Part shown: one piece after another, positions 2,899 to 47,816 of the stretch
Layout of the letters: each line of letters opens with the position of its first letter
How positions within the stretch are numbered: position 1 is the stretch's first letter
NCBI GenBank assembly: GCA_041494445.1
Contig: JBGQAU010000003.1
Location: 1,018 to 65,017, forward strand
Direction of reading: 5' to 3'
DNA: 64,000 nucleotides
Source: Acidobacteriota bacterium
GTDB lineage: Bacteria > Acidobacteriota > Polarisedimenticolia > Polarisedimenticolales > JAIQFR01
Position numbers and translations under genes: made by a program
Notes under the pieces: generated by a model
Database searches by the model: none
What the model saw: only the letters and a program-made list of their open reading frames with translations
What the model was told of the DNA's origin: nothing

Positions 2899-3216
2899 CT
2901 ACTCCGCCGCCATCCTTTTTGCCATCGCGATCGCCGCGCGGAATCCCCTCTTCGCTCGCACCGCCTTGACCTGCGCCTTCTGCCTGGGCTTCAGTATTCG
3001 CAGGTGGCCCATGTACTGACCCTGGAGCCTCAGATGGGCGCGGCGCTTGGCTGAAAGCTTCAGCCTGCGTTTCGGCGGCTCGCATTCCACCGACGCGCCG
3101 CGCCCCGCGCCGTTCGTGAGCGCGACGAACCGGCCGAGCGACCGGTCGATCGCGGTGAGCGCACGACGGATGGCGCGGACGTGTCGCGTGATGGGGTTAC
3201 GGGTGCGGTTTGGCAC
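2899..3216 (-). CDS. Small basic protein of unknown function (possibly nucleic-acid binding)
   Basis: 105 aa with a GTG start preceded by GGAGGA. Very Arg/Lys-rich C-terminal half (KRRLKLSAKRRAHLRLQGQYMGHLRILKPRQKAQVKAVRAKRG). No recognisable catalytic motif. Confidence 0.5.
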   Translation of the reverse strand: MPNRTRNPITRHVRAIRRALTAIDRSLGRFVALTNGAGRGASVECEPPKRRLKLSAKRRAHLRLQGQYMGHLRILKPRQKAQVKAVRAKRGFRAAIAMAKRMAAE

Positions 3217-3250
3217 GGCGGATCCTCCGTCGACGCGGCAATCCTAACAC
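3167..3250 (-). repeat. Copy 1 of a duplicated module (-10-like box, SD, start codon, first ~17 codons)
   Basis: On the minus strand, GTGTTAGGAT lies 34 nt upstream of a GTG start. The first 50 coding nt match the copy at 4171-4220 at 37/50 positions. Encoded peptide: MPNRTRNPITRHVRAI. Confidence 0.6.
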
Positions 3251-3278: not shown

Positions 3279-4220
3279 TCACGGCTTGTCCGGGGTCGGC
3301 TTGGCCGTTGTGCGGTCAGCTGCAAGCTTGGCGAGGATGCCGGCGTCCCGCAGAGCTTCCTGGTACCGGCGCGTCAGGTCGCAGGCCGCCTTCCGAAATC
3401 CCGGATCTTTGGCCTTGAGCATCGCGTTGACCTTATCCGCCTCCTCGGCGAAGGGACGTGAGACCTTGGAGAAGGCTGTGTCGTAGTCCGGATTCTTGAG
3501 GGCCTTCCTGTGGGCTTCGAAACACCCATCTCCGAGATCTGAGTAACGCAAGGCACCAGAACAGAAGTGAAAGGTCCTTGCGCAGGGAACGTCTTCCAGA
3601 TTGCAGCCCGTTTGGTCCCCTTGGACAAAGGGCATGGAGTTCGCGAGGTCCTGATCCATTCGTGCGCGCTTGGGGACGCCGCCCGGCCAAGGCCTGAAGC
3701 CGAGCTTGCTCGCTTGCGCCTCGACGGTGTTGTAGATGCCGGCCGCGCAGAACTCCTCTTTGACGATCGCCTGCCCACGCAGAATGCTCATGAACGGGTC
3801 TTCCGCGTTGATCCTGGCGACGGCGTTTCCAGAGGCCTTGGTGAAGCTCTCCCGGAATCCCGCATCGTTCTTCTGAAGGTGTATGACGGTTTCAGCGAGG
3901 TCCTTGAAATGGAAGGCGTACCTTCCGAACTCGGTGCGGGCGTCCAACCCGCCGACAGCACCAAAATGGGGAACGATCTCCACGGTCCCGCCACCGCGTT
4001 TCTCCTGGGCCCCGAACAGCATCTCAAGAAGCTGACGCTCACCAGCCGAGCACTTCCTCAGGCAGTCTTTCGCTGGTCCAGCTACCGAGGCGGACGTGAT
4101 CAGCGAGAGTGGCAGGATCCAGGCCAATAGCTGAAATCTCCGAGCGACCAGGCATCGAAGGGGGAATTGGCTGATGGACTGGGCGTGACGAATGATGGGG
4201 TTGCAGGCGCGCTTCGGCAC
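3279..4220 (-). CDS. Secreted hypothetical protein
   Basis: 313 aa with a GTG start and a G-rich SD. N-terminal MPKRACNPIIRHAQSI is followed by a hydrophobic signal-like segment (RRFQLLAWILPLSLITSASVAG). Several Cys residues. No known motif recognised. Confidence 0.55.
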   Translation of the reverse strand: MPKRACNPIIRHAQSISQFPLRCLVARRFQLLAWILPLSLITSASVAGPAKDCLRKCSAGERQLLEMLFGAQEKRGGGTVEIVPHFGAVGGLDARTEFGRYAFHFKDLAETVIHLQKNDAGFRESFTKASGNAVARINAEDPFMSILRGQAIVKEEFCAAGIYNTVEAQASKLGFRPWPGGVPKRARMDQDLANSMPFVQGDQTGCNLEDVPCARTFHFCSGALRYSDLGDGCFEAHRKALKNPDYDTAFSKVSRPFAEEADKVNAMLKAKDPGFRKAACDLTRRYQEALRDAGILAKLAADRTTAKPTPDKP

Positions 4221-4255
4221 GGTAGAACCCCCTGGAGAGGGGGCGATGGTAACAC
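4171..4255 (-). repeat. Copy 2 of the duplicated module (-10-like box, SD, start codon, N-terminal codons)
   Basis: On the minus strand, GTGTTACCAT lies 35 nt upstream of the GTG start at 4220. The first 50 coding nt are 37/50 identical to 3167-3216. Confidence 0.6.
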
Positions 4256-5055: not shown

Positions 5056-5581
5056 AGGCCCGTTCCCCTGTCGAGATCAACGCGAACCTCGGGAAGCTCC
5101 GCTGACGGGGCGAGGGATCCTTTCTGCTCGCGTGTCATTGTGAGGTGTCTGCGGCGTCACAGTCGATCGTATCAATTGTAAATGCATCTCTATTCTATGT
5201 AAGCACACAATAGAAAGTGGCCCTGGCGAAGCGTTACACAATCAAAGCACTTACAAACCGATCACTTACCGCATGGCGTTGCACGCTGAGAGCCGGACAT
5301 GCGGCCCACCCTCGCCAACCGCAAGCGGCAGTTTAGGGGCTTTCCCGGCGGTTTGGGAAGCGTTCCGTGGACCTGGTGAGCGGCATCTGGGGGGCCGTCC
5401 GGGGGTTTCCGGGCCGCCAACCGGCATTCCATGGGCACGATTTGGGCCGAAAAGACGCGTTCGGGAGGGGGCCGAGAGAGTGCTAACAAGATTCAACTTG
5501 TTGACAATTCATGTAGTTAGCTAATTTGAGGCGACCGGCAGAATCCGGGCGGCATGCCGCTGGACCCTCGAAAACGGCCCC

Positions 5582-5686
5582 ATAAACGCACTCGCCGCGC
5601 CGATTCCGTTCGATAAATGCACTCGGGAAGGCCTCTCCCCCACCATAACTGCACCCGCGGAGGCCCCGACCCCTCGATAAATGCAC
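5582..5686. repeat. Four phased direct repeats (iteron-like), core ATAA[AC][CT]GCAC
   Basis: ATAAACGCAC at 5582-5591, ATAAATGCAC at 5613-5622, ATAACTGCAC at 5645-5654 and ATAAATGCAC at 5677-5686. Start-to-start spacing is 31, 32 and 32 bp. Each core is followed by a GC-rich GGARGGCC..CCCC-like tail. The repeats lie in ORF-poor DNA. Confidence 0.7.
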
Positions 5687-5720
5687 CCTACTGAGGGACC
5701 CGGGCGGTCCCCCTCGCGGC

Positions 5721-5915
5721 TCACCATTGCGTGTCCAGGGCTTCGTCCCAGTGCCGTTCGGCCTGCCAAGGAATGCCGATGCGCGGCCCCCACGACGTGT
5801 CCCTCGACCACGCGATGCAATCGTAGGTGAATGTCGCTCCGAGACGGAATCGACTTTCTGCAGGACGACCGCGTCGCCACGCGCACGCGTCCCAGCTGAC
5901 CACCATCATTCGCAC
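5721..5915 (-). CDS. Possible small Trp-rich ORF downstream of the ApeA-like gene
   Basis: 64 aa with a GTG start and 7 Trp residues (…SWDACAWRR…YDCIAWSRDTSWGPRIGIPWQAERHWDEAL). Third-position GC is moderately high and the composition is not Arg/Pro shadow-like. No SD and no known motif. Confidence 0.25.
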   Translation of the reverse strand: MRMMVVSWDACAWRRGRPAESRFRLGATFTYDCIAWSRDTSWGPRIGIPWQAERHWDEALDTQW

Positions 5916-6060
5916 CCACCCCAGCGATGAGGAGATGTCCCGCAGAATCCGGACGCTGGCCTGCTGACTCGGTTCGCCCCCCGCGCCGCAGGTCGTCTCC
6001 CTGTTCAGATGCGTCGCCGTCGCCCGCTCGGGAGTACAGATGTGCCGCGGAACCTTGTTC

Positions 6061-7398
6061 TTACGGCAGCCTGATACTCCTTCTCAGATAGGAGTACTCA
6101 GGCGAGGTGGTGGCGAGAAGTGACGCGTTTGGACGACTTGGCAAGAGGCGGGAGAATAGCACCGCCTTCATCAGTGTGCTCAGCACAAAGCAATATTTCC
6201 AGAGAACATCCGGCGTGGCGGCGCCCGCTGCGAGCTCCGGCGTCCTGTGCACGAGGTAGTTGCGTGTCTTCACCACCGTCCGCACGAACGCTTCCTCGTC
6301 AGACACGAACGGCGTTATTGCTTCACGACAGCCTTCGATTAGTGCGTGGATGCGCGCGCGAAGGCTCGGCTCGTGGCTGAACGCGAGGCACCCGCCGAGC
6401 CAAGCGCGGTGCTCTTGAGGGACGGACTTCATGATCTCGCGGAGACGCTCTTGATGGCTGGCGTCGCGCCCGGCACAAGGGTCCAGGGTTCGATGGAATC
6501 CCTCAAGCGCCTGCATGACGCAAAGGAACTTCTGCTCGACGTACATGTCGGGTTTCTGATCAACACTGAAGAACACGTTTAGGGGCGCCCGCGCGACGGC
6601 GCTAAGCGCCAGCCAGGCAGGAATGAGAGTCGGCAGGTCCGCTTCCAAGTCGCGATAGGTTGTGGGCATGTTATGAAGGTCGGAAGGCTGGTCAAGAGCA
6701 CGCTCTCGATTGTATGCTTCCACCACTTCCACGGACTTCTCCCAGGCCCTTCCGTCGATCGTCGGATGCTCGAATCGAAGGGCGGAACGCACACTCCGAG
6801 CCCCAGTGAGAAGCGTGACGAGATTCGCCAGTGGGTAGAAGTACTCATCATGCCATTGGTGCATTCCGAGAGGCTGTGCAATGCCGATTTCCAATCCAGC
6901 TTCTTCGCGCAGCGTCACATCGTGACTTCTAAAAGCGCTGCTCAAGCCCAGCCACAAGGTGAGATTTCCATCTTGCAGACGAATCTCAATGGGCGCGCTC
7001 TGCTCATAGGTGATGTCGTGGCGTCCCGACATCCGAAGACCTCCAAGTCCGAGCCATTCCTGAAGGTGGCTCAACTGGAGACTCGCCCGCCTGAATTGGA
7101 TGTCTGACTCCCGAGTGAACGCGGCACCCAGGAAGATCAGCGACGGAAGGTACTTCACGATCTCTAGGTCGGGCCTGGAACCCCCCCGAGAGCCGCCGAA
7201 GTATGAGTCGCAAAGGGTTATGGACCCTCCTCCCAGATCGGTCCCTATGATCAAGGGCGTGCAGAAATCGGACTGCCGAAGTGACTGGAACAAGGTAAGG
7301 AGCGGCCGCTTCCCGGCCGGCAGCTCTAGCGTGCCTGGATAGGTCTTCCCTGGATCATCCGGGAAGTGCCAAGTGCCATGGCGTGTGCTTTCTTCCAT
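6061..7398 (-). CDS. ApeA-like HEPN-domain protein (abortive-infection/defence type)
   Basis: N-terminus MEESTRHGTWHFPDDPGKTYPGTLELPAGKRPLLTLF…GGGSITLCDSYF matches the ApeA N-terminal domain pattern. The C-terminus carries VVKTRNYLVHR, an R-x4-H HEPN motif. The start was chosen at the ATG at 7398; an alternative upstream ATG is at 7446. Confidence 0.8.
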   Translation of the reverse strand: MEESTRHGTWHFPDDPGKTYPGTLELPAGKRPLLTLFQSLRQSDFCTPLIIGTDLGGGSITLCDSYFGGSRGGSRPDLEIVKYLPSLIFLGAAFTRESDIQFRRASLQLSHLQEWLGLGGLRMSGRHDITYEQSAPIEIRLQDGNLTLWLGLSSAFRSHDVTLREEAGLEIGIAQPLGMHQWHDEYFYPLANLVTLLTGARSVRSALRFEHPTIDGRAWEKSVEVVEAYNRERALDQPSDLHNMPTTYRDLEADLPTLIPAWLALSAVARAPLNVFFSVDQKPDMYVEQKFLCVMQALEGFHRTLDPCAGRDASHQERLREIMKSVPQEHRAWLGGCLAFSHEPSLRARIHALIEGCREAITPFVSDEEAFVRTVVKTRNYLVHRTPELAAGAATPDVLWKYCFVLSTLMKAVLFSRLLPSRPNASLLATTSPEYSYLRRSIRLP

Positions 7399-7456
7399 GA
7401 ACGCTCGTGATCGCCCAACCTGGGGCGAGTTACTGCGGGCTCGCATCCCGCCTGCC

Positions 7457-7492
7457 CCCGGCTCGCGAAGCAGCGAGGCGCGGCGAGCCGGG
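7457..7492 (-). terminator. GC-rich hairpin downstream of the Abi_C-like gene (possible terminator or insulator)
   Basis: CCCGGCTCGC (7457-7466) pairs with GCGAGCCGGG (7483-7492), giving a 10-bp stem and a 16-nt loop. There is no U-tract, so confidence is low. Confidence 0.25.
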
Positions 7493-7520
7493 CTCCTCTG
7501 TTACCTATCTCCCCGACCGC

Positions 7521-8354
7521 TCAACCTCCTGTTGCCTTCGCCACCTTTCGCGCGTCCCAGGTCTCTAACACGAATATTGCCAGGGTGTGGGCTGCGTGCA
7601 CAGCGAGTCTTGCGTGTCGAGGTGAGGGCCGATACGGGCGGCGGCCTCGGCCATGCGCGGACCCCACGTGAGTTCGGAGCGCCCCTAGGCCATCAACGAT
7701 CGAAGTCAACCCGGACAGGATTCGCTTCAGGTCGTCGTCGGCCAGTTGGGAGGGGTCCAGCCCCAGGTGAGCCTGGACGACTTTCCACAGCGGCTTGATG
7801 GACTGGTCAGTCGGAGGCGTGAGTCCCTCATCCTCGATACAGACGTGACACAGGGACTCGACGCTCGCGCAGGCGGCAGTGATAGCGGCGCCCGGGTCTG
7901 TTTCGACGCTGGCCAGCGCCCGTTGGGACTCCATCTCGAGCGCTCCAAGGTCGCGAGATCGGAGAATCGACTCCAATGAGCGAGTTGGCACCCCTGCTTT
8001 GACCCTTAGAATCTTTCCGCCCGTATGATAGCTGAGCCCAAATCTCGCGAGCACGTCACGGACACGCTGGCGGGATCTGTCCAGATTGTCCTGCGTATCG
8101 TCACACCGGGGTCGATCGACCTCCATGAACTCTTCCAGCACCCCACCGAGGACTGCCAACGCATCGGTGCCCGAATCGGCGCTCGCGCGTCCTAGCCACC
8201 GGGCACACTTATCCTGACAGTTACCCTCCGGGGGGTCGCCTGGCGCACCCTTCTCCATGAACAGGCTGTCAAGGCGGCGGTGGCTGTAGTAGTGGGCGCC
8301 GAGAACCTCGCCCACGGTCACCCTGACAGGAATGGGAATACTCGTTTGATTCAT
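7521..8354 (-). CDS. Abi_C-type (abortive infection C-terminus) HEPN-family protein
   Basis: 277 aa. The C-terminal half contains LSGLTSIVDGLGALRTHVGSAHGRG, the Abi_C signature (R…GSAHG). The N-terminal region (YYSHRRLDSLFMEKGAPGDPPEGN…KCARWL) is typical of this family. Confidence 0.8.
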   Translation of the reverse strand: MNQTSIPIPVRVTVGEVLGAHYYSHRRLDSLFMEKGAPGDPPEGNCQDKCARWLGRASADSGTDALAVLGGVLEEFMEVDRPRCDDTQDNLDRSRQRVRDVLARFGLSYHTGGKILRVKAGVPTRSLESILRSRDLGALEMESQRALASVETDPGAAITAACASVESLCHVCIEDEGLTPPTDQSIKPLWKVVQAHLGLDPSQLADDDLKRILSGLTSIVDGLGALRTHVGSAHGRGRRPYRPSPRHARLAVHAAHTLAIFVLETWDARKVAKATGG

Positions 8355-8467
8355 CGCGCTATTCAGATCCGGCTAGACGATCCAGCTGACCCACCGGCGG
8401 GACCGGCGCGGGCGCCGCGCTGTTTGGAACGCCCGTGATAGGCCGGACCGTCAGCTTGGCGCGCGCG

Positions 8468-9313
8468 TTAGACGTCAGCCCCCTTGGCGGCTCTAAGTTT
8501 CTTCTCCAGGTACGTGGCGACGCCAGCCGCCGTGATTACTGCGAGTTCGGCTTCTTCGTAGGAAGGTGGCCGACCTTCCCGCAAGTGCCGCCCCATTTCA
8601 GAGGCGTAGCCCCACAGTCTTTTCAGTCCTTCATCCAGAGGTCGCGGAACGAGCCCGGGGTGGCGATCGATGATCTCGCCAAGCGTGGCCCTTTGATCGC
8701 CACAGGCCTCCCGTGCGACACATTCAACCGCAGCCATTCCGTGCTGCATCGCCCCTGTGACGTCCGGTTCGGGCCGACGGGCTAGGTCGCGCAACGCCTC
8801 ATGAATCTCCGTCGCCGCGGTGTTGAGTCCGGCCGCCGCGAGATCGTCGGCAGCTGGCCGCACCGCAGCCTCAAACGCTTCGGGACCCCGCACTTCAATC
8901 CGACCGTCGATCAGCTGCCAGCCGATACCCGCCTTCACGAAGAAAGCATTGACGCGTCTTGCGAATGAATCGTCGGCCCTTTCTGCGTCCGGTTCACGAA
9001 AGGCAGCACTCGCTTGACGCTTGAGGCTGGCATGGATTGCTTCAATGATGTCGTAGACTTCGAACCAGGAACAAGCATCGAGGAACTGGCGCACTTCCCA
9101 ATCGACGTTGGGAAAGGGCGACCAGTTGCTATCGTCCGGCCGACGCATCAGGACATCGCAGGCGATCGCCCGAACCTCGTGGGGGCCGAGGCCTGCGCCG
9201 TATGCGAAGTCGACTACGAGACCACGCAGATCGTGTGGCGCGTCGCGGCGCACGGTAATTTCTGCCGGTTTGGGCGCAAAGCCGTGACGTTCGGAGAAGG
9301 TCTTATCATCCAC
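8468..9313 (-). CDS. AbiJ-N-terminal-domain-like protein with C-terminal HEPN-like module
   Basis: 281 aa with a GTG start. N-terminus MDDKTFSERHGFAPKP…VRRDAPHDLRG resembles AbiJ NTDs. The C-terminus (LKRLWGYASEMGRHLREGRPPSYEEAELAV) resembles HEPN-type helical modules with a conserved R-H pair. The family assignment is less certain than for the two neighbouring genes. Confidence 0.65.
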   Translation of the reverse strand: MDDKTFSERHGFAPKPAEITVRRDAPHDLRGLVVDFAYGAGLGPHEVRAIACDVLMRRPDDSNWSPFPNVDWEVRQFLDACSWFEVYDIIEAIHASLKRQASAAFREPDAERADDSFARRVNAFFVKAGIGWQLIDGRIEVRGPEAFEAAVRPAADDLAAAGLNTAATEIHEALRDLARRPEPDVTGAMQHGMAAVECVAREACGDQRATLGEIIDRHPGLVPRPLDEGLKRLWGYASEMGRHLREGRPPSYEEAELAVITAAGVATYLEKKLRAAKGADV

Positions 9314-9636
9314 CTCTTGTGCCCTCTCTCCTGCGTCAACCCTGCACCTGACCCGCCGCCCTGCGGCTCAGCCCGACGGATCCCTCGCTGTCGGGGAGCA
9401 TACGCCGGTCGTGCTCGAAGTGGAAACGGCTCTCCGCCGGCCGCTCAGAGCGAGAGAGCCCCCGTGGCGCGGCGGTCGCTGTAAACCACTTCCGCCGGCC
9501 AGACCACGGCGGCGGAGAGCGCGACGGGTTCTTCTGGACGAAAAAGGTCGCGAGTTTCGCGGAGGTGAGCGCGGAAAAGCTTGAGAATCCAGGCTCGGCC
9601 TGTTCACCACTCCCCGGGTTTTGTAGTCGAGTGGTT

Positions 9637-9660
9637 TGGCTCCCGAACCGGGACTCGAAC
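9637..9660 (-). pseudogene. tRNA 3'-terminal fragment (T-loop, 3' T-stem, 3' acceptor strand, CCA); possible att repeat or decayed tRNA
   Basis: The minus strand reads GTTCGAGTCCCGGTTCGGGAGCCA. The upstream bases cannot form the 5' T-stem, and no complementary 5' acceptor strand is present. The fragment sits at the GC-composition switch. Confidence 0.7.
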
Positions 9661-9674
9661 TATCGACGCGGTGG

Positions 9675-10082
9675 TTACGACTCGATCGCCTTCCCGCAGT
9701 ACCGGCAGAGCTTCGCGGCGGCCTTGATCGTCTCCGCGCAGTAAGGGCACGCGCGCGTCGCTCCCGGCGCGGGCGATGGGGCGCTCGGGTCGCGCGCCTG
9801 GGCTCCCTCGATCAGCTCCTTGATCCGGACGGCGTCCCTCTTGCGGTGGCCGTGGCTCGCGATCGGGTCGGAGCCGCCCGACGACTCGATCAGGATGTCG
9901 GACCAGAGGACACCGGTCTCGATCCGGACCGATGCGATCCGGTTCAGGTGGATGCTGATCTCGTTCTTCGTGAACAGCGTGCGCGTGCGCTTCACGACGA
10001 ACGTGTCCCCCACCTCGATCACCGTGGGGAACAGGTGGTTTCCCTTAGTCAGGCGGCTCGCGGCGAACGTCTCGACGGGCAT
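9675..10082 (-). CDS. Bacterial PH-domain protein with C-terminal zinc ribbon
   Basis: 135 aa. The pattern FPTVIEVGDTFVVKRTRTLFTKNEISIHLNRIASVRIETGVLWSDILIESSGG is bPH-like. The C-terminus carries CPYCAETI…CRYCG. It lies 12 nt downstream of glgP, so it is probably co-transcribed. Confidence 0.7.
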   Translation of the reverse strand: MPVETFAASRLTKGNHLFPTVIEVGDTFVVKRTRTLFTKNEISIHLNRIASVRIETGVLWSDILIESSGGSDPIASHGHRKRDAVRIKELIEGAQARDPSAPSPAPGATRACPYCAETIKAAAKLCRYCGKAIES

Positions 10083-10094
10083 GGTGGCTCCGAT

Positions 10095-12659
10095 CTACGC
10101 CCATGCGATCAGGCCGGTCTCGTGCGTCCGGCCGAGGTCCTCGTGCCGCGGCAGCACGCGGACGGTGAGCCCCTGCGTCCCGCTGGTCCGGCAGGGCATC
10201 TTGACGGAGAACGTGAGTCCGCCGGCGGGGTCCTGCCCCGCGGGCGCCATCTCCACGGCCTCGGGCTCGACGATCTCGCGGCTCTCGCGGAGCTTCCCGA
10301 GGTAGACCTGCACCGCGAGGTCGGCGGCGTCGAGCCCCCCGGTCTCGATCCAGGCCTTGACCTCGAACTGCATCCCGACCCGCGTATCCTCCGGCAGGAC
10401 GATCTCGACGCGGAGGACGCGGACGCCGCCCCAGGCCCTGCGCACCCGCTCCTTCCAGCGGGCCAGCTCCCGGGCACGCCGGTAGCCGTCCTCCTCGAAC
10501 CGCGCGCGCCGCTCCTGGGCCGGGCCGTACGCCGCGACCATGTACTGGTGGACCATCCGGTTCGTGTTGAAGACCGGACACAGCTCTCCCATGGCGGTCT
10601 TCATCAGGGAGATCCAGCCCCGGGGCAGATGGTCGGCGCCGCGCGTGTAGAACAGCGGCACCACCTCGACCTCGAGGAGATCGCAGAGCGCGCCCGCCTC
10701 GACGCGGTCCTGGTAGTCGAGGTCGCGGTAGTCCTCCCCTTTCCCGATCCCCCAACCGGTGCGCTGCGAGCAGGCCTCGTCCCACCATCCGTCGAGGATG
10801 CTGAGGTTCAAGGCACCGTTGAACGCCGCCTTCATCCCGCTGGTCCCGCTGGCCTCCATCGGGCGCCGCGGCGTGTTGAGCCAGACGTCCACCCCCTGCA
10901 CGAGGTAGCGGGCGACCACCTGGTCGTAGTCCTCGATGAACACCAGCCGGCGCCGGAACTCGGGCCGCCTCGCCAGCTGGATGATCTCCCGGATCAGCTG
11001 TTTCCCGGGCTCGTCTCTCGGGTGCGCCTTCCCGGCGAACACGATCTGGACCGGGCGACCGGGCGCGTTCAGGATCCGCTCGAGGCGCGCGGGGTCCCGC
11101 AGCAGCAGCGTCCCCCGCTTGTACGTCGCGAACCGCCGCGCGAAGCCGATGGTCAGCGCCTCGGGGTCGAGGACGTCCTCCGCCTGGGCGATCTCCGACA
11201 TGCCCGCGCCCCGCGCCTCGAGCTGCGCCGCCAGCCGCCGGCGCGCGAACGCGACCAAGCGCTCGCGCCGCCGCTCGTGGGTCCTCCACAGCTCCTCCCC
11301 CGGGATCTGCTCGCCGCGCGCCCAGACCCGCGTGTCGCCCGGCTCCTCGGACCAGCACGGGCCGAGGTACCGGTCGTACAGGTTTCGCATCTCGTCGGAG
11401 ATCCAGGACTGCGGATGGACCCCGTTGGTGACGTGCGTGATCGGGATCTCGTCCAGGGGGACGCCGGGCCAGGCCTCCTGCCACATCGCCCGGGAGACCT
11501 TCCCGTGCAGCCGGCTCACCCCGTTGGCGAACCCCGAGGTCCTGATCGCGAGCACGGCCATGTTGAACCGCTCGTCCTGACGGCCGGGGTGGATCCTGCC
11601 GAGGTCGAGGAACGGCTCGCGCTCGAGCGAGAGCTCGGCGCGGAACGGCGCGAAGTAACGCTCCATGAGGTCCGGCTCGAACACGTCGATGCCCGCCGGC
11701 ACCGGCGTGTGCGTCGTGAAGACTCCGCTGGCCGCCGCCACCTCCAGCGCCTCCCGGAACGCGAGGCCGTGTTCCTTCATCAGAAGGCGCACCCGCTCGA
11801 GGCCGAGGAACGCGCAGTGCCCCTCGTTCATGTGGAACACCCGGGGCCTCAGACCCAGGGCATCGAGGGCCCGCACGCCTCCGATCCCCAGGACGATCTC
11901 CTGCCGGATCCGCATCTCGCTGTCGCCGCCGTACAGCTCGGCGGTGACGTCCTGGAGGTCCGGCGGGTTCTCGACGAGGTTGGCGTCGAGCAGCACCAGC
12001 GTCACCCGGCCGACCTCGGCCCGCCACGGCCGCAACACCAGAGGCCGCCCCGCGAGGTCCACGGTGATCCGGACCGGCCGGTTCCGCTCTCCGTGGAACG
12101 GCCGCACCGGCAGAACGGAGAAATCGTTGACCGGGTAGCGCTCCTGCTGCCACCCCTCCGCGGTGAGGTACTGCCGGAAGTACCCGTTCTGGTAGAGGAG
12201 CCCGACCCCGACGAGCGGGAGGCCCAGCTCGCTCGCCGACTTCAGGTGGTCGCCGGCGAGGATGCCGAGACCCCCAGAGTAGATCGGCAGGCTCTCCGTC
12301 AGGCCGAATTCCATGGAGAAATACGCGACCTCGGGGGTCGCCCAGGCCCCGTACCTCCTCTGGTGCCAGGTCCCGGCGCCCGCGACGTACTCCCCGAGAG
12401 CCGCCGCCACACGGTCCATGTGCGCGAGGAACGCCTCGTCCTGGGCCGCCTCCTGGAGCCGCTCCTGCCGGATGCTCCCGAGCATCAGGACGGGGTTGTG
12501 CCCGCTCTCCTCCCAGAGGTCGCGGTCGAGCCTGCGGAACAGGCTGATCGTCTCGTGGTCCCAGGACCACCTAAGGTTGTAGGCGACCTCCTCGAGCGCG
12601 GCCAGGCGCTCGGGGAGCGCGGGCTTCACGTGAAACGTCTTGACGGGGCGCATGGGCAT
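10095..12659 (-). CDS. glgP: Alpha-glucan (glycogen/maltodextrin) phosphorylase, alpha-1,4-glucan phosphorylase family
   Basis: 854 aa from MPMRPVKTFHVKPALPERLAALEEVAYNLRWSWDHE. Further matches include AYFSMEFGL…IYSGGLGILAGDHLKSASELGLPLVGVG and EASGTSGMKAAFNGALNLSILDGWW (pyridoxal-phosphate Lys region). The listed 1208-aa ORF is a spurious upstream extension. Confidence 0.9.
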   Translation of the reverse strand: MPMRPVKTFHVKPALPERLAALEEVAYNLRWSWDHETISLFRRLDRDLWEESGHNPVLMLGSIRQERLQEAAQDEAFLAHMDRVAAALGEYVAGAGTWHQRRYGAWATPEVAYFSMEFGLTESLPIYSGGLGILAGDHLKSASELGLPLVGVGLLYQNGYFRQYLTAEGWQQERYPVNDFSVLPVRPFHGERNRPVRITVDLAGRPLVLRPWRAEVGRVTLVLLDANLVENPPDLQDVTAELYGGDSEMRIRQEIVLGIGGVRALDALGLRPRVFHMNEGHCAFLGLERVRLLMKEHGLAFREALEVAAASGVFTTHTPVPAGIDVFEPDLMERYFAPFRAELSLEREPFLDLGRIHPGRQDERFNMAVLAIRTSGFANGVSRLHGKVSRAMWQEAWPGVPLDEIPITHVTNGVHPQSWISDEMRNLYDRYLGPCWSEEPGDTRVWARGEQIPGEELWRTHERRRERLVAFARRRLAAQLEARGAGMSEIAQAEDVLDPEALTIGFARRFATYKRGTLLLRDPARLERILNAPGRPVQIVFAGKAHPRDEPGKQLIREIIQLARRPEFRRRLVFIEDYDQVVARYLVQGVDVWLNTPRRPMEASGTSGMKAAFNGALNLSILDGWWDEACSQRTGWGIGKGEDYRDLDYQDRVEAGALCDLLEVEVVPLFYTRGADHLPRGWISLMKTAMGELCPVFNTNRMVHQYMVAAYGPAQERRARFEEDGYRRARELARWKERVRRAWGGVRVLRVEIVLPEDTRVGMQFEVKAWIETGGLDAADLAVQVYLGKLRESREIVEPEAVEMAPAGQDPAGGLTFSVKMPCRTSGTQGLTVRVLPRHEDLGRTHETGLIAWA

Positions 12660-41031: not shown

Positions 41032-41154
41032 GGTGGCTCCTCCCGAAAGACTGCCAGTCTACCCGGGAAACCCCGTACGGCAAGGTCCAAGAGGTTCTCG
41101 ATAGGGACAGCCAGGCCCTGAGGTATCGTAGTCACCGAGGAGCGCGTGTAGAGC

Positions 41155-42672
41155 GTGACGACGAGCGCCGAGACAACCCCGGCGGTGCCACCGCCGGGAA
41201 CGCCGTTCGACGGCCGCGGCAAGCGGATCGGCATCTTCGTCGTCGCGTACAACGCAGAGAGCCAGATCGAAAAGACCCTCGCGCGCATTCCGGAGGACAT
41301 CTGGCGTGCGATCGAAGTGCTCTGGGTGGTCGACGACTGCAGCCACGATGAGACCGTCGAGAAGGCCCTTTCGTTCGGCCGGTGGCGGGAGAAGATCGTC
41401 GTGCTCCGCAACCGCGTGCGCCAGCAGTACGGCGGCGATCAGAAAATCGGCTGTCAGTATGCCCTCGACCACGGGCTGGACGTGGTGGTCACGCTGCATG
41501 CGGACGGCAAGTATGCACCGGAGCGATTGGCGGACCTCCTCTCTCCTGCGGTGGCCGGGCAGGCCCGCGTGGTCGTGGGCTCCCGCATGTTGAAGAGGGG
41601 CGATGCCGTGCGGGGCGGCATGCCGCGCTACAAGTACCTTGGCAACATGGTCCTCACGAAGATCCAGAACTCGCTCAGCGGGCTTTCGCTGACGGAGTTC
41701 CACTCCGGCTACCGGGCCTACAGTGCGGCCTTCCTGGCGGATGTCCCGTTCTGGGAGAATTCGGACGACTGGCACTTCGACTCCCAAGTCCTCCTTCAGG
41801 CGGCGCAGACCGGCGAGAAGATCGTCGAGGTCCCGATACCGACGTACTACGGCGACGAGATCTCCCGCGTGAATGGGGTGGTCTACGGCTTCCACTGCGT
41901 TGCGACCTCCGTCGGGTACTTCCTGCAACGGAAGGGGATCCTGTACTCGCGGAAGTTCGACGTCGCCCTTCGGGGTCGCCACTACTTCGAGAAGTTCAAC
42001 GACCCCGCCTCCAGTCACTCTCTGATTCTCGAGCGGCTCGGGCGCGAAGGCCTGGCCGGGAAGCGGGTTCTCGAGCTGGGTGTGGGCGACGCATCGCTCA
42101 CGAAGAGAATGGCGGAGATGGGAGCCCTGGTGGACGGGGTGGAAATCGATTCTCGGGCGGCGGGCCTCGCGGGCCCCTTCTGCAAGAACGTCTATGTCGG
42201 CGATTTGGATGCGATCGAGACGATTCTGCCCGACGCCGAATACGACATCGTCGTCGCGGCGGATGTGCTGGAGCACGTCAAGGATCCGGAGTTCGTGCTG
42301 TCGAAGCTCAAGAAGTACCTGAAGCGCGGGGGGCCTCTTGTGGTCTCGCTGCCGAACGTGGCGAATTTCTACGTGCGCTTCAGCCTGCTGATCGGCCGGT
42401 TCCCCTACTACCGAAAGGGGCTCTTGGACCGGACTCACCTGCACTTCTTCACGCTCCGGTCAGCGGAGAGGATGCTGTGGAAGACGGGCTGGTTGGTCGA
42501 GGAGAGGGCGGTTTCAGCCATTCCGCTTCCGGTCGTGTTCCCGTTTGTCGTGAAGCCTCCCTTTCATGTTGCGCTCCGGGCCTTTCATGGGCTGACGCGT
42601 CTCATGAAGGGCCTCCTGGCCTACCAGGGAATCTATTTCTGCCGGAACCCGAACAAGTCCGACTTGCTGTGA
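41155..42672 (+). CDS. Family-2 glycosyltransferase fused to a class I SAM-dependent methyltransferase domain
   Basis: The GT2 part shows IGIFVVAYNAESQI…VVDDCSHDET…HADGKYAPE. The methyltransferase part shows KRVLELGVGDASLT…VVAADVLEHV. GTG start. Confidence 0.8.
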   Translation: MTTSAETTPAVPPPGTPFDGRGKRIGIFVVAYNAESQIEKTLARIPEDIWRAIEVLWVVDDCSHDETVEKALSFGRWREKIVVLRNRVRQQYGGDQKIGCQYALDHGLDVVVTLHADGKYAPERLADLLSPAVAGQARVVVGSRMLKRGDAVRGGMPRYKYLGNMVLTKIQNSLSGLSLTEFHSGYRAYSAAFLADVPFWENSDDWHFDSQVLLQAAQTGEKIVEVPIPTYYGDEISRVNGVVYGFHCVATSVGYFLQRKGILYSRKFDVALRGRHYFEKFNDPASSHSLILERLGREGLAGKRVLELGVGDASLTKRMAEMGALVDGVEIDSRAAGLAGPFCKNVYVGDLDAIETILPDAEYDIVVAADVLEHVKDPEFVLSKLKKYLKRGGPLVVSLPNVANFYVRFSLLIGRFPYYRKGLLDRTHLHFFTLRSAERMLWKTGWLVEERAVSAIPLPVVFPFVVKPPFHVALRAFHGLTRLMKGLLAYQGIYFCRNPNKSDLL

Positions 42673-44295: not shown

Positions 44296-44309
44296 TTCTG
44301 TCGAGTCAA
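44281..44309 (-). promoter_or_regulatory. Sigma70-like promoter of the Xre-RES operon
   Basis: On the minus strand: TTGACT (44309-44304), a 17-nt spacer, then TATTAT (44286-44281). Confidence 0.5.
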
Positions 44310-44398
44310 GCGGCGCGCTCGGGGCGCGCGTAACTCCTGGGGCCTCCCGCCGTAAACTGCCCCGGGGAACGTTCATCCCACGGAGGCGACGCTCGGCC

Positions 44399-47300
44399 AT
44401 GAAAACCGCTCACCACTCGATCCCGACGGCCATCCTCGTTCTCGTTCTCGCGGCGACCGCTCCCGCGTTCGCGACCGACCCGGTGCACGACGCGAGGCTC
44501 CTGCGCTTCCCCGACATCCACGGGGACACCGTGGTGTTCTCCCACGGCGGAGACCTGTGGTCCGTGCCGACCGGAGGGGGCGTCGCGACCCGCCTGACCA
44601 CGGGCGACGGTCTCGAGGTGTTCCCGCGATTCTCCCCCGACGGGAAATGGATCGCGTTCACCGGCCAGTACGACGGCTCCTCGGACGTTTACGTGATGCC
44701 GGCGACGGGAGGCGAGCCCCGGAGGCTCACCTGGTACCCGGCGGAGAACGCGTCGGAGCGGATGGGCTACGACAACATGGTGATCGGCTGGACTCCCGAC
44801 GGGAAGATCCTGTTCCGGTCCCTGCGCGGCCCGATCGGCGGGTTCGTCGGTGTGCCGTACGTGGTGAGCCCCGAGGGCGGGCCGGAGGAGCGGTTCCCGC
44901 TCCCGGAGTCGGGGATCATCTCGTTCGCCCCCGACGGGAAGCGGATCGCCTACACCCGGATCTTCCGGGATTTCCGGACGTGGAAGCGGTACGCGGGCGG
45001 GATGGCGCAGGACGTGTGGATCTACGACCTCGAGAAGAAAGCCCTCGATCGGGTCACTGACTGGGAGGGGACCGACACGCAGCCGATGTGGATCGGCGAC
45101 TCGATCTACTTCCTGTCGGACCGCGAGGACTGGAAGCTCAACCTCTGGCGGTACGACCTCGCCTCGAGAAAGACCTCCCGCGTCACGGACTTCAAGGAGT
45201 ACGACGTCAAGTGGCCGCACTCCGGAAGCGGGAAGATCGTGTTCGAGAACGGCGGCTGGCTCTACCTCCTCGATCCCGCCGCCGGCAAGCCGCTCAGGAT
45301 CCCCGTGGACCTGCCCGACGACCGGAAGCTGGCGCGGCCTCACTGGGTGGACGTCTCGAACCGGATCACCGATTTCGCCCTGGCCCCCGGCGGCAAGCGC
45401 GCGGTCTTCGCCGCGCGCGGCGACGTGTTCACGCTCCCGGCCGAGCACGGGAACACACGCAACGTCACCGCGACGGCGGGGGTGCGTGAGAAGAGCGCCG
45501 TCTGGTCCCCCGACGGAAAGTGGATCGCGTACGTATCCGACGCGACCGGCGAGGACGAGATCTACGTGGTCCCGCAGGACGGGAAGGGAAAGCCCGTCCA
45601 GGTGACGACCGGATCGGACTCCCTGCATTACGATCCCGTGTGGTCCCCCGACTCGAAGAAGGTCGCCTGGTCCGACCGCGCCATGCGCCTTTGGTACGTG
45701 GACATCGCGGAGAAGAGGCCGGTCCAGGCGGACAAGGCGGACGTCTTCGAGATCAACGAGTACGCCTGGTCGCCGGACTCGAAGTGGATCGCGTACTCGA
45801 AGGTGCAGAACAACGACCTGCCGGCGGTCTTCCTCTATTCGATCGAGTCGCGGACGATCACCCAGGCCACGAGCGGCTTCTGCCGCAGCTACGGCCCGCA
45901 GTTCGACCCCGACGGGAAGTACCTCTTCGCGCTGTCCGACCGCGACGTGAACCCGGTCGTCGGGAACTTCGAGGCCTCGTTCACGGTGACCTCGCCGACC
46001 CGTCCCTACGCGATCGTGCTCCGATCCCACCTCCCGTCGCCGTTCGCGCCGCGCAGCGACGAGGCAAAGCTCGAGGGCGAGGAGAAGACCGAGAAGCCGG
46101 CCGACAAGGACGGCGCGAAGGCCGGGGCGGCGAAGGACGAGAAGGAGAAGGACAAGGATAAGAAGGAGCCGTTCCGGATCGACCTCGCCGGGATCCAGGA
46201 TCGGATCGTCCCGTTCCCGGTCGCTCCGGGCGAATACCGCGGCCTGCGCGCGGCGAAGGACCGGCTCTTCTACCTGGCGGCGCCGGTCCGCGCCCTCACC
46301 GGTCCGCCTGCCGGGGCGAAGCCCCGCCTCGTCATGTACGACCTCGACAAGCGGAAGGAGCAGACGATCCTCGATCCGGTGGACAACTACGACCTCTCCC
46401 CCGACGGGAGCCGCATCGTTTACCGGAGCGAGAAGACCTACGGGATCGTGGACGCGAAGGAGGGCGCGAAGGTCGGCGACGGCAAGCTCGACCTCTCCGA
46501 CCTCCGCATGGAGCTCGACCCCGAGGCCGAGTGGCGCCAGATCTTCGCGGAAGCGTGGCGCCTCGAGCGCGACTTCTTCTACCTCCCGGACATGGGGAAG
46601 ATCGACTGGCCGCAGATGAAGCGGCGCTACGAGCCGCTCCTCCCCTACGTGAGCCACCGGGCCGACCTGACCTACGTGATCGGCGAAATGATCGGAGAGC
46701 TCGAGAGCGGGCACGCGTACACGGGCGGCGGCGACGCGCCGCGTCCCGAGAAGGTCCCGGTGGGAGCGCTCGGTGCCGACCTCGAGCCGGACCCGAAGGC
46801 CGGCCTCTGGCGGATCGCGCGGATCCTCGATGGGCGGCCCTGGATCGAGAGCCGCCGCTCGCCGCTCGCCGAGCCGGGCATCCGCGTCGCCGCGGGCGAC
46901 TACCTCCTGGCCGTGAACGGAAAGGACCTCGCGGCGTCCGACGATCCGTATCGTCTCCTCGTCGAGACCCCGGGACACACGGTCACGCTCCTCGTCAACT
47001 CCAAGCCGTCCCGTGATGGAGCCCGCGAGGTGACGGTGGGGCCGCTCGGCGACGAGCAGGATCTCCGGTACATCGACTGGGTGGAATCGAACCGCAAGAA
47101 GGTCGAGCAGGCCACCGGAGGAAGGGTCGGGTACGTCCACATCCCGAACATGGGCGCCGAGGGGCTTCAGGAGTTCATCCGGCAGTACTTCCCGCAGATC
47201 CGGAAAGAGGGGCTCGTCGTCGACGCCCGGTACAACGGCGGCGGGTTCGTCTCGCAGATGGTCCTGGAGCGCCTGCGCCGCGTGGTCATGGGGATGGGCG

Positions 47301-47758
47301 GCCCGCGCGGCGGACGGCCGGGCACCTTCCCCGACGCCGCGTTCAACGGCCCGATGGTCTGCCTGCTCAACATGTACTCGGCCTCGGACGGGGACATCTT
47401 CCCGTACTACTTCCGCGAGTACGGCCTCGGACCGCTGATCGGCACCCGCTCTTGGGGAGGCGTGATCGGCATCCGCGGACTCGGCCCGAACCTCGTGGAC
47501 GGGGGGTACGTCACCATGCCCGAGTTCAGCTCGTACAACCTGAAGAGCCAGTGGATCATGGAGAACCACGGCGTCGATCCGGACATCGTTGTGGACAACC
47601 TCCCGCAGGACGAGATGGCCGGAAAGGACGCGCAGCTCGAGCGCGCCATCCAGGAAGTGATGAAGCGCGTCGAGGAGAGGAAGCCCACGTGGCCGCCTCC
47701 ACCGCCCTCGCGCGACCTCCGCGACCCGGACGCGACGGAGGGGGTGGAGAGGAGATAG
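44399..47758 (+). CDS. Tricorn protease homologue (S41-family, beta-propellers + PDZ + peptidase)
   Basis: Signal peptide, then LLRFPDIHGDTVVFSHGGDLWSVP…RFSPDGKWIAFTGQYDGSSDVYVMP. A PDZ-like segment follows. The C-terminal S41 core shows GLVVDARYNGGG…NMYSASDGDIFP. Confidence 0.9.
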   Translation: MKTAHHSIPTAILVLVLAATAPAFATDPVHDARLLRFPDIHGDTVVFSHGGDLWSVPTGGGVATRLTTGDGLEVFPRFSPDGKWIAFTGQYDGSSDVYVMPATGGEPRRLTWYPAENASERMGYDNMVIGWTPDGKILFRSLRGPIGGFVGVPYVVSPEGGPEERFPLPESGIISFAPDGKRIAYTRIFRDFRTWKRYAGGMAQDVWIYDLEKKALDRVTDWEGTDTQPMWIGDSIYFLSDREDWKLNLWRYDLASRKTSRVTDFKEYDVKWPHSGSGKIVFENGGWLYLLDPAAGKPLRIPVDLPDDRKLARPHWVDVSNRITDFALAPGGKRAVFAARGDVFTLPAEHGNTRNVTATAGVREKSAVWSPDGKWIAYVSDATGEDEIYVVPQDGKGKPVQVTTGSDSLHYDPVWSPDSKKVAWSDRAMRLWYVDIAEKRPVQADKADVFEINEYAWSPDSKWIAYSKVQNNDLPAVFLYSIESRTITQATSGFCRSYGPQFDPDGKYLFALSDRDVNPVVGNFEASFTVTSPTRPYAIVLRSHLPSPFAPRSDEAKLEGEEKTEKPADKDGAKAGAAKDEKEKDKDKKEPFRIDLAGIQDRIVPFPVAPGEYRGLRAAKDRLFYLAAPVRALTGPPAGAKPRLVMYDLDKRKEQTILDPVDNYDLSPDGSRIVYRSEKTYGIVDAKEGAKVGDGKLDLSDLRMELDPEAEWRQIFAEAWRLERDFFYLPDMGKIDWPQMKRRYEPLLPYVSHRADLTYVIGEMIGELESGHAYTGGGDAPRPEKVPVGALGADLEPDPKAGLWRIARILDGRPWIESRRSPLAEPGIRVAAGDYLLAVNGKDLAASDDPYRLLVETPGHTVTLLVNSKPSRDGAREVTVGPLGDEQDLRYIDWVESNRKKVEQATGGRVGYVHIPNMGAEGLQEFIRQYFPQIRKEGLVVDARYNGGGFVSQMVLERLRRVVMGMGGPRGGRPGTFPDAAFNGPMVCLLNMYSASDGDIFPYYFREYGLGPLIGTRSWGGVIGIRGLGPNLVDGGYVTMPEFSSYNLKSQWIMENHGVDPDIVVDNLPQDEMAGKDAQLERAIQEVMKRVEERKPTWPPPPPSRDLRDPDATEGVERR

Positions 47759-47816
47759 CGTCCGATTGACGGTTGACCTCCTCGCGCCTCATGTGTTACG
47801 AAGCACCCAGGCATTG

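Follow-up and report, generated by a model that had tools for sequence, protein, structure and literature searches.

Positions 6061-9313 of a 64,000-nucleotide stretch of Acidobacteriota DNA (contig JBGQAU010000003.1 of assembly GCA_041494445.1; the whole stretch is henceforth termed the window) carry three adjacent minus-strand genes, g1, g2 and g3, that belong to abortive-infection-type families with known or suspected HEPN domains. These genes likely form part of an ordinary defense island, in which three independent single-gene systems of the abortive-infection type accreted beside a Type IIG restriction-modification (R-M) gene, rather than one cooperative system. All three families are already catalogued as single-gene defense genes or candidates: g1 as PDC-S58/ApeA, g2 as AbiJ/Abi_C and g3 as PDC-S32. 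An initial annotation, made from the sequence alone, had proposed an undescribed defense arrangement of three unrelated HEPN genes that lack a neutralizing partner. Here, we examine the domain content, motif conservation, partners, recurrence and surroundings of the trio. The source is a sediment metagenome and the bacterium is known only from metagenome assemblies; the sequencing runs holding the locus are DNA only.

Domain content and conserved motifs of the three genes

A scan of the window for open reading frames (ORFs) located three minus-strand frames arranged head to tail at 6061-7446, 7521-8354 and 8468-9313, and all peptides quoted in the initial annotation are present in them. The g1 frame stays open to an ATG at 7446, while the ATG at 7398 is favored by homologue N-termini and by the PADLOC model. 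The latter start gives a protein of 445 residues (6061-7398) and a g2-g1 gap of 122 bp (7399-7520), which would shrink to 74 bp if g1 began at 7446. The g3-g2 gap of 113 bp (8355-8467) contains a long imperfect hairpin. Public gene calls on the source contig shorten g1 to 323 residues and g2 to 137 residues by choosing internal methionine starts. We consider the longer forms of both genes to be correct and the ORFs intact, because the Pfam and PADLOC models are covered at full length and the homologue alignments agree. Such short calls could also be expected if the genes did nothing at present, whether as inert cargo or as decaying relics of a mobile element, and the lack of a visible integrase or intact tRNA suggests an old, immobilized island. 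Inactivity or decay of this kind is nevertheless highly improbable: measured against homologues and the Pfam and PADLOC models, the ORFs have their full length and retain all invariant residues, four assemblies show an identical locus, and the short public calls result from the choice of start site in ORFs that are intact. No NCBIfam model matched g1, g2 or g3.

ApeA, the family closest to g1, is said to have been first tested as a single-gene HEPN defense system by Gao et al. in 2020. The g1 protein matches two Pfam families above their curated cut-offs, namely ApeA_NTD1 (PF18862, E 7.7e-30, model positions 2-271 of 271), which represents the putative sensor region, and HEPN_Apea (PF18739, E 4.8e-20), the predicted RNase domain. 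Its HEPN catalytic motif R379-N-Y-L-V-H384 (R-x4-H; 6247-6264, minus strand) is strongly conserved among 79 homologues, with the arginine present in 100%, the asparagine in 94% and the histidine in 99%, and R379 and H384 are invariant in alignment A3. The ApeA-type N-domain and R-x4-H motif read from the letters alone are thereby borne out. PADLOC assigned g1 to the single-gene candidate PDC-S58 (3.3e-64). The protein also matches the Cas13-ApeA model; since no CRISPR array occurs anywhere in the 64-kb window, this match reflects only the common HEPN_Apea domain. Searches with a g1 profile against PDB sequences came back empty, and no solved structure is detectable by sequence.

Characterized ApeA proteins provide a template for g1. 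ApeA is a single protein that works alone in E. coli with no RNA partner; a pocket built from its N-terminal and HEPN domains binds a ligand, which activates an oligomeric HEPN RNase that cuts tRNA anticodon loops (bioRxiv 10.64898/2026.01.26.701840). In the same study, 5'-phosphorylated deoxydinucleotides were identified as the ligand of Ec2ApeA, and the arginine equivalent to R379 proved essential in both Ec1ApeA and Ec2ApeA. Another ApeA homologue senses and cleaves the genomes of RNA phages (bioRxiv 10.64898/2026.03.20.713152). Like ApeA, g1 is a standalone gene with both Pfam signature domains at full length and an invariant R-N-x3-H, and it has an R-M gene close by, as was noted for ApeA (PMC3710099). 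It differs in length: with 445 residues, g1 is shorter than Ec1/Ec2ApeA, whose catalytic arginines stand at 521 and 502 instead of 379 (the HEPN region of Ec2ApeA runs to residue 583).

The second gene, g2 (7521-8354, minus strand), encodes an AbiJ-like protein of 277 residues that consists of an N-terminal helical domain with a β-hairpin and a C-terminal Abi_C HEPN domain. Abi_C (PF14355) matched residues 188-263 at E 3.5e-22, above the curated cut-off, and phrog_23253 was the PHROG match (1.1e-20); the PADLOC AbiJ model aligned with the C-terminal part only (3.4e-12). Among 37 homologues, the HEPN motif R227-T-H-V-G-S-A-H234 (7653-7676, minus strand) keeps R227-x6-H234 without exception, and R227, H229, H234 and G235 are all invariant. 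An AlphaFold model (mean predicted local distance difference test, pLDDT, 91) places the motif where the third helix of the C-terminal bundle ends. Foldseek matches of this model include the HEPN structures 2hsb (prob 0.99, TM-target 0.67), 1o3u (0.96) and the sacsin HEPN domain 3o10 (0.93), plus Csm6 and Las1, with E-values that are weak because the query was the whole protein. These results uphold the earlier assignment of g2 to the Abi_C type. For residues 1-151, no Pfam match was found even at E<=10, and a g2 profile retrieved nothing from PDB sequences.

Proteins of this architecture were described by Anantharaman et al., who defined the combination of AbiJ-NTD1-5 with a HEPN domain in lactococcal AbiJ-type proteins, proposed that the N-terminal domains sense phage components and restrain the C-terminal HEPN toxin, and recorded an association of ApeA and AbiJ genes with R-M operons (PMC3710099). 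The mechanism of AbiJ itself is still unknown (PMC13064643). With the AbiJ/Abi_C proteins (PMC3710099; PMC13064643), g2 has in common a C-terminal Abi_C HEPN domain bearing R-x6-H, a non-catalytic domain at the N-terminus, a length of about 280 residues, the single-gene organization, and relatives on plasmids and prophages. It differs from AbiJ in its N-terminal 150 residues, which belong to no Pfam family and are only remotely like AbiJ_NTD4.

Members of the g2 family also occur in phage-related and housekeeping contexts. In IMG/VR, 25 viral contigs carry such a gene, which frequently occupies the extreme end of a predicted prophage contig, beside tail genes, a position that fits a role as prophage accessory (moron) defense; on one viral contig (L183), the gene adjoins tail/baseplate-like genes. 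In related metagenome contigs (L105, L119, L122, L126, L131), a g2-family gene sits between apparent purQ/purL-type purine-biosynthesis genes, and therefore represents a single-gene insertion into a housekeeping operon.

The third gene, g3 (8468-9313, minus strand), has a GTG start and encodes an AbiJ_NTD4 protein of 281 residues with a four-helix C-terminal domain. AbiJ_NTD4 (PF18863) matched residues 5-154 at E 1.5e-20, above the 34-bit cut-off, and PADLOC assigned residues 49-274 to the single-gene candidate PDC-S32 (1.8e-24). The family is large, with 305 relatives across many phyla in GTDB species genomes, and our literature search found no paper describing PDC-S32. The C-terminal motif WGYASEMGRHLREG, which corresponds to W234-G-Y-A-S-E-M-G-R242-H243-L-R-E246-G247 (8573-8614, minus strand), contains seven positions that are invariant among 37 homologues (W234, G235, S238, R242, H243, E246 and G247), and the strict form of the motif is kept by 76 of the 89 full-length family members in the fetched loci. 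Proteins listed as PDC-S32 or as 'AbiJ-NTD4 domain-containing protein' resemble g3 in being encoded by single genes that are widespread across phyla and present on plasmids. PDC-S32 is, however, a candidate model, and g3's C-terminal domain carries S-E-x-G-R-H-x-R-E-G, not Rx4-6H.

Several comparisons link this domain to its counterpart in g2. In the structural models, the four C-terminal helices of g3 follow the same order and have the same lengths as those of g2, and the R-H dyad appears to lie at the end of helix 3, the position of R227-x-H229 in g2. A comparison of the two C-terminal domains with hhalign was collinear over 106 columns, weakly so at E 0.009 and a probability of 4.6%. The g3 C-terminal domain may accordingly be described as HEPN-like but unproven, an assignment made via weak profile similarity to the g2 family. 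Its chemistry is uncertain because an invariant R-H...E-G replaces Rx4-6H. The AbiJ-NTD-type start that had been suggested for g3 is therefore confirmed, while the proposed C-terminal HEPN motif is not; likewise, the fusion of an N-terminal domain to a HEPN RNase domain is supported for g1 and g2, with the HEPN status of g3 unconfirmed. Among PDB sequences, the g3-family profile had a marginal match (E 0.011) in CtpA from H. pylori, within the N-terminal/PDZ region and partly through the His-tag, which was dismissed as chance.

The similarity between g2 and g3 extends beyond the C-terminal domain. A hidden Markov model (HMM) of the g2 family scored up to 16.5 bits on g3-family proteins, compared to <=0.1 for reversed or shuffled controls and <=3.9 for ApeA proteins, while the g3-family HMM reached up to 9.3 bits on g2-family proteins compared to <=2.3 for reversed or shuffled controls. 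Matches of the g2-family HMM always formed one collinear stretch that aligns residues 63-175 of g2 with residues 83-204 of g3. This stretch comprises the last helices of the N-domain, the β-hairpin (GLSY..GGRI vs GIGWQL.DGRIEV) and the opening helix of the C-terminal bundle, and the secondary-structure maps of the two models superimpose element by element. Because of these cross-family scores and superimposable maps, we regard g2 and g3 as remote homologues, that is, ancient AbiJ-type paralogues with one architecture, as far as profile and model comparisons can tell. The three genes had been described as mutually unrelated, which is incorrect for this pair. For specialists, the remote homology between the g2 Abi_C family and the g3 AbiJ_NTD4/PDC-S32 family may be of use, and the invariant R-H...E-G makes PDC-S32 a reasonable first biochemical target as a non-canonical HEPN-like effector.

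Shared ancestry raises the question of whether g3 could be a catalytically dead, HEPN-like paralogue that neutralizes g2 by heterodimerization, i.e., a pseudo-enzyme antitoxin. Such a role would be in line with the common architecture of the two remotely homologous families, with the missing canonical arginine in g3 and with its position immediately upstream of g2. The invariant R-H...E-G constellation, however, points to a conserved activity of g3 itself, PADLOC lists the family as the single-gene candidate PDC-S32, and the two families occur separately throughout the sampled loci: g3 without g2 in 80/80 genome loci, and g2 without g3 in 105/105. We therefore find an antitoxin function of g3 scarcely plausible. 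Tandem AbiJ-like paralogues were observed once more, in Pseudomonas citronellolis LMG 18378 (L054), where two g3-family genes (8978-9811 and 9956-10798) are 47.5% identical and both keep S-[EQ]-x-G-R-H; this is the sole other case of stacked AbiJ-like paralogues among the 80 genome loci. One could speculate that g3-type proteins are HEPN-derived effectors with a rewired active site, an uncharacterized catalytic variant, and that tandems of diverged AbiJ-like paralogues (g3-g2 and L054) reflect a recurrent widening of the trigger range, a reading we deem unlikely.

Partners, recurrence and the case for independent genes

Domain content, motif conservation, the lack of partners and of co-occurrence, and the foreign base composition are results of the analysis; from these and from homologues, we infer RNase activity, triggers and an anti-phage phenotype for the trio by way of the following scheme. 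By analogy with ApeA, the N-terminal and middle domains of g1 would form a pocket that is filled by a ligand derived from infection, upon which a dimeric or oligomeric HEPN RNase would switch on and cut tRNA anticodon loops or phage RNA. In g2, the N-terminal domain may serve as the internal sensor or inhibitor for an Abi_C HEPN RNase of canonical type (R-x6-H). The g3 protein would follow the same architecture, with a C-terminal domain that is probably a diverged Abi_C relative bearing R-H...E-G. Control is presumably exerted in cis through the fused N-terminal domains, and since each protein would be self-controlled in this manner, no antitoxin gene is needed. The stacking of the three genes would be a consequence of island accretion.

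This scheme bears directly on the missing neutralizing partner that had been flagged as an anomaly. The underlying observation is accurate: the gaps hold no antitoxin-sized ORF, with no ORF of >=20 residues inside either of them, and no MNT gene was found by ORF scan and Pfam search. It is nonetheless expected, because ApeA is a self-contained, ligand-activated tRNA nuclease. That these families consist of single-polypeptide sensor-effectors was a prediction of 2013 (PMC3710099), which a 2026 study bore out for ApeA (bioRxiv 10.64898/2026.01.26.701840). The absence of an antitoxin beside HEPN genes of these families should hence not count as an anomaly. HEPN-MNT pairs (HepT/MntA) and type III toxin-antitoxin (TA) systems (AbiF, AbiV) likewise employ a HEPN RNase effector in an abortive-infection or toxin role. 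These systems differ in requiring a separate antitoxin, either an MNT nucleotidyltransferase or a repeat RNA, whereas the locus has no MNT gene, small ORF or repeat RNA.

Non-coding DNA around the genes could in principle encode an unannotated RNA antitoxin, as in the type III TA systems AbiF and AbiV, which were long thought to be solitary and proved to need RNA antitoxins (PMC13064643). Room for such an element exists in a 361-bp non-coding stretch upstream of g3 and in a 1-kb stretch downstream of g1 with a 32-bp x 2.4 repeat. Yet neither gap nor the region upstream of g3 contains tandem repeats, and the sole repeat lies downstream of g1 and upstream of none of the three genes. The gaps gave no Rfam match even at E<=1, and their predicted folds are not clearly above those of shuffled sequences: the g2-g1 gap folds no better than shuffles (z +1.2), and the g3-g2 gap reaches z -1.7, with 7/200 shuffles folding equally well. 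Furthermore, relatives of the genes have no common class of flanking sequence, and ApeA needs no RNA partner. Taken together, an RNA antitoxin seems very unlikely. No Pfam match was obtained for the small ORFs of the 1-kb stretch or of the region upstream of g3. A reading of the gaps as integron attC sites was also rejected, given that they have no canonical R'/R'' core and no integrase, although no search with an attC model was made.

To assess recurrence of the trio, we sampled 80 genome loci for g3 (GTDB species genomes, with 305 relatives), 57 of which extend at least 1.5 kb on both sides, and 80 metagenome plus 25 viral-contig loci for g2, supplemented by one viral g3 locus and by contigs that carry the nearest ApeA relatives. 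HMMs of the three families detected a second trio member in 0/80 g3 genome loci, 0/80 g2 metagenome loci and 0/26 viral loci. None was present by the closest ApeA relatives either; on the examined contigs of these relatives, the nearest homologues of g1 stand alone among unrelated neighbors. No neighboring family is common to more than 4-5 loci, those being close relatives, and among the 80 g3 genome loci the maximum is 4. The g2 family has no conserved neighbor in 103 loci, and the g3 family has no conserved small upstream ORF in 63 of the genome loci. Outside the source, the trio was encountered only in three assemblies of the same population (L001, L172/L173 and L174), which are 99.9% identical where compared. 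All three families are found on plasmids, separately and with no common accession among the matches listed, where the Prokaryotic Genome Annotation Pipeline (PGAP) names them 'HEPN domain-containing protein', 'abortive infection family protein' and 'AbiJ-NTD4 domain-containing protein'. Sharing of contigs was suspected for some g2 and g3 homologues because their contigs had equal lengths, but the contexts proved different.

With these data, the suggestion of an undescribed arrangement, or of one system, could not be sustained. As a cooperative operon, the genes might yield mixed HEPN oligomers or interdependent, layered triggers, and the idea derives some appeal from the common strand, the gaps of 113 and 122 bp, the lack of a predicted terminator, the similarly atypical GC content at third codon positions (GC3), and the established fact that HEPN domains act as dimers. 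No two of the families co-occur, however, in at least 185 independent loci; each is found alone on plasmids, in prophages and on chromosomes, and ApeA works alone in E. coli. A single cooperative system therefore appears quite improbable.

Several points weigh against three independent HEPN systems of known type. For g1, no PADLOC model named plain ApeA is among the matches at E<=0.1, and an exhaustive HMMER search yielded 4021 relatives, the nearest of which are just 35-37% identical; g1 thus differs from ApeA in that no relative found exceeds 37% identity and in that its PADLOC matches are the PDC-S58 and Cas13-ApeA candidates. For g3, no conserved arginine precedes H243 by 4-6 residues among the 37 homologues, R242 and H243 being adjacent and Rx4-6H absent, and the C-terminal 136 residues lack a Pfam match even at E<=10. 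A Foldseek search of the g3 model (pLDDT 90) against PDB and BFVD returned no HEPN match, a miss that is not evidence against a HEPN fold because the query was the whole protein; the all-helical matches obtained (G-protein-coupled receptors, PPAR-gamma) are spurious. The co-occurrence scan relied on family-specific HMMs, which unrelated neighboring HEPN families would escape, and many of the metagenome contigs are short. Finally, with such short gaps and no predicted terminator separating the three genes, g1-g3 may share one transcript, and a single transcription unit would make functional interplay possible. Three independently acting genes in an accreted island remain our preferred interpretation. 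Its significance goes little beyond annotation, adding a divergent ApeA (<=37% identity) and two AbiJ-like genes to the catalogue.

The acquired island and its surroundings

The trio belongs to an island of at least 9.6 kb that was acquired horizontally, and the region described here is its right-hand end. GC content is 59-64% from position 1 to ~9660 and 70-74% beyond. GC3 amounts to 0.65-0.69 in the trio and 0.72-0.81 in the other island genes, in comparison to 0.91-0.96 in adjacent host genes; the foreign origin of the island follows from atypically low values, namely a GC of 0.59-0.63 and a GC3 of 0.65-0.69. At the start of the window, a Type IIG R-M enzyme is encoded on the plus strand (4-2877), with its 5' end beyond the window. 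It matches PADLOC REase_MTase_IIG (3.5e-242) as well as Pfam Eco57I and N6_Mtase, has a GC3 of 0.81, belongs to the same low-GC island as the trio, and reaches its full length of 1057 residues in a same-population assembly (L172). Low-GC acquired DNA, an R-M gene and several stacked same-strand defense genes with loose or no relationship to each other are also the features of described defense islands that combine R-M and HEPN Abi genes (PMC3710099; PMC10952713). Nothing essential sets the present locus apart from them; its exact gene combination occurs in this population alone, which is typical of such islands.

The boundary between island and core genome is marked by a 24-nt sequence resembling a tRNA 3' end, GTTCGAGTCCCGGTTCGGGAGCCA (9637-9660, minus strand), which comprises T-loop, acceptor strand and CCA and occurs in one copy versus 0 expected. 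It coincides with the GC3 break, directly after the stop codon of a host bPH/zinc-ribbon gene (9675-10082), and may be the remnant of an attachment (att) site of the island. No intact tRNA was detected in the window or in L172, and no integrase in the sequences examined.

Apparent joints 7490>9381, 7523>8385 and 8413>9384 in one sequencing run (X1) were considered as traces of cassette excision and rejected, as they consist of 23-69 nt, ~91%-identical pieces on other contigs. They represent either an extragenic repeat or fortuitous GC-rich matches and not alleles from which g2 or g3 is missing. Coverage of positions 9373-9600 reaches 4-5 times genome depth in the metagenome run containing the locus, and a 4116-nt contig of the same depth contains, in a row, pieces ~91% identical to 7455-7523, 8385-8413 and 9384-9406. 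This suggests a short repeated extragenic element common to the three upstream/intergenic regions; no second copy of it is present inside the window.

Two further island ORFs that look like signal-peptide proteins have no family match. A 60-nt direct repeat (3169-3228 and 4173-4232, 73% identity) coincides with paralogous 5' ends in the minus-strand ORFs 2899-3216 and 3279-4220, both of which start with MP[NK]R..NPI.RH and are without family match; the longer one has a signal-peptide-like segment. The gene-free 1-kb stretch downstream of g1 (5056-6060) contains an AT-rich patch near 5170-5260 and, at 5613-5688, a tandem repeat (32 bp x 2.4) that is the sole one of the 64-kb window. On the minus strand, this repeat reads as four copies of GTGCAtTTATcG spaced ~32 nt apart and looks like iterons or operator sites. 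Farther away, an open frame of 1160 codons on the minus strand (44306-47788), with a GC3 of 0.66 that is atypically low for this genome, matches nothing in Pfam or PADLOC and could be either a foreign gene or a spurious ORF, and its neighbor, ORF 41152-42672, is a glycosyltransferase-methyltransferase fusion.

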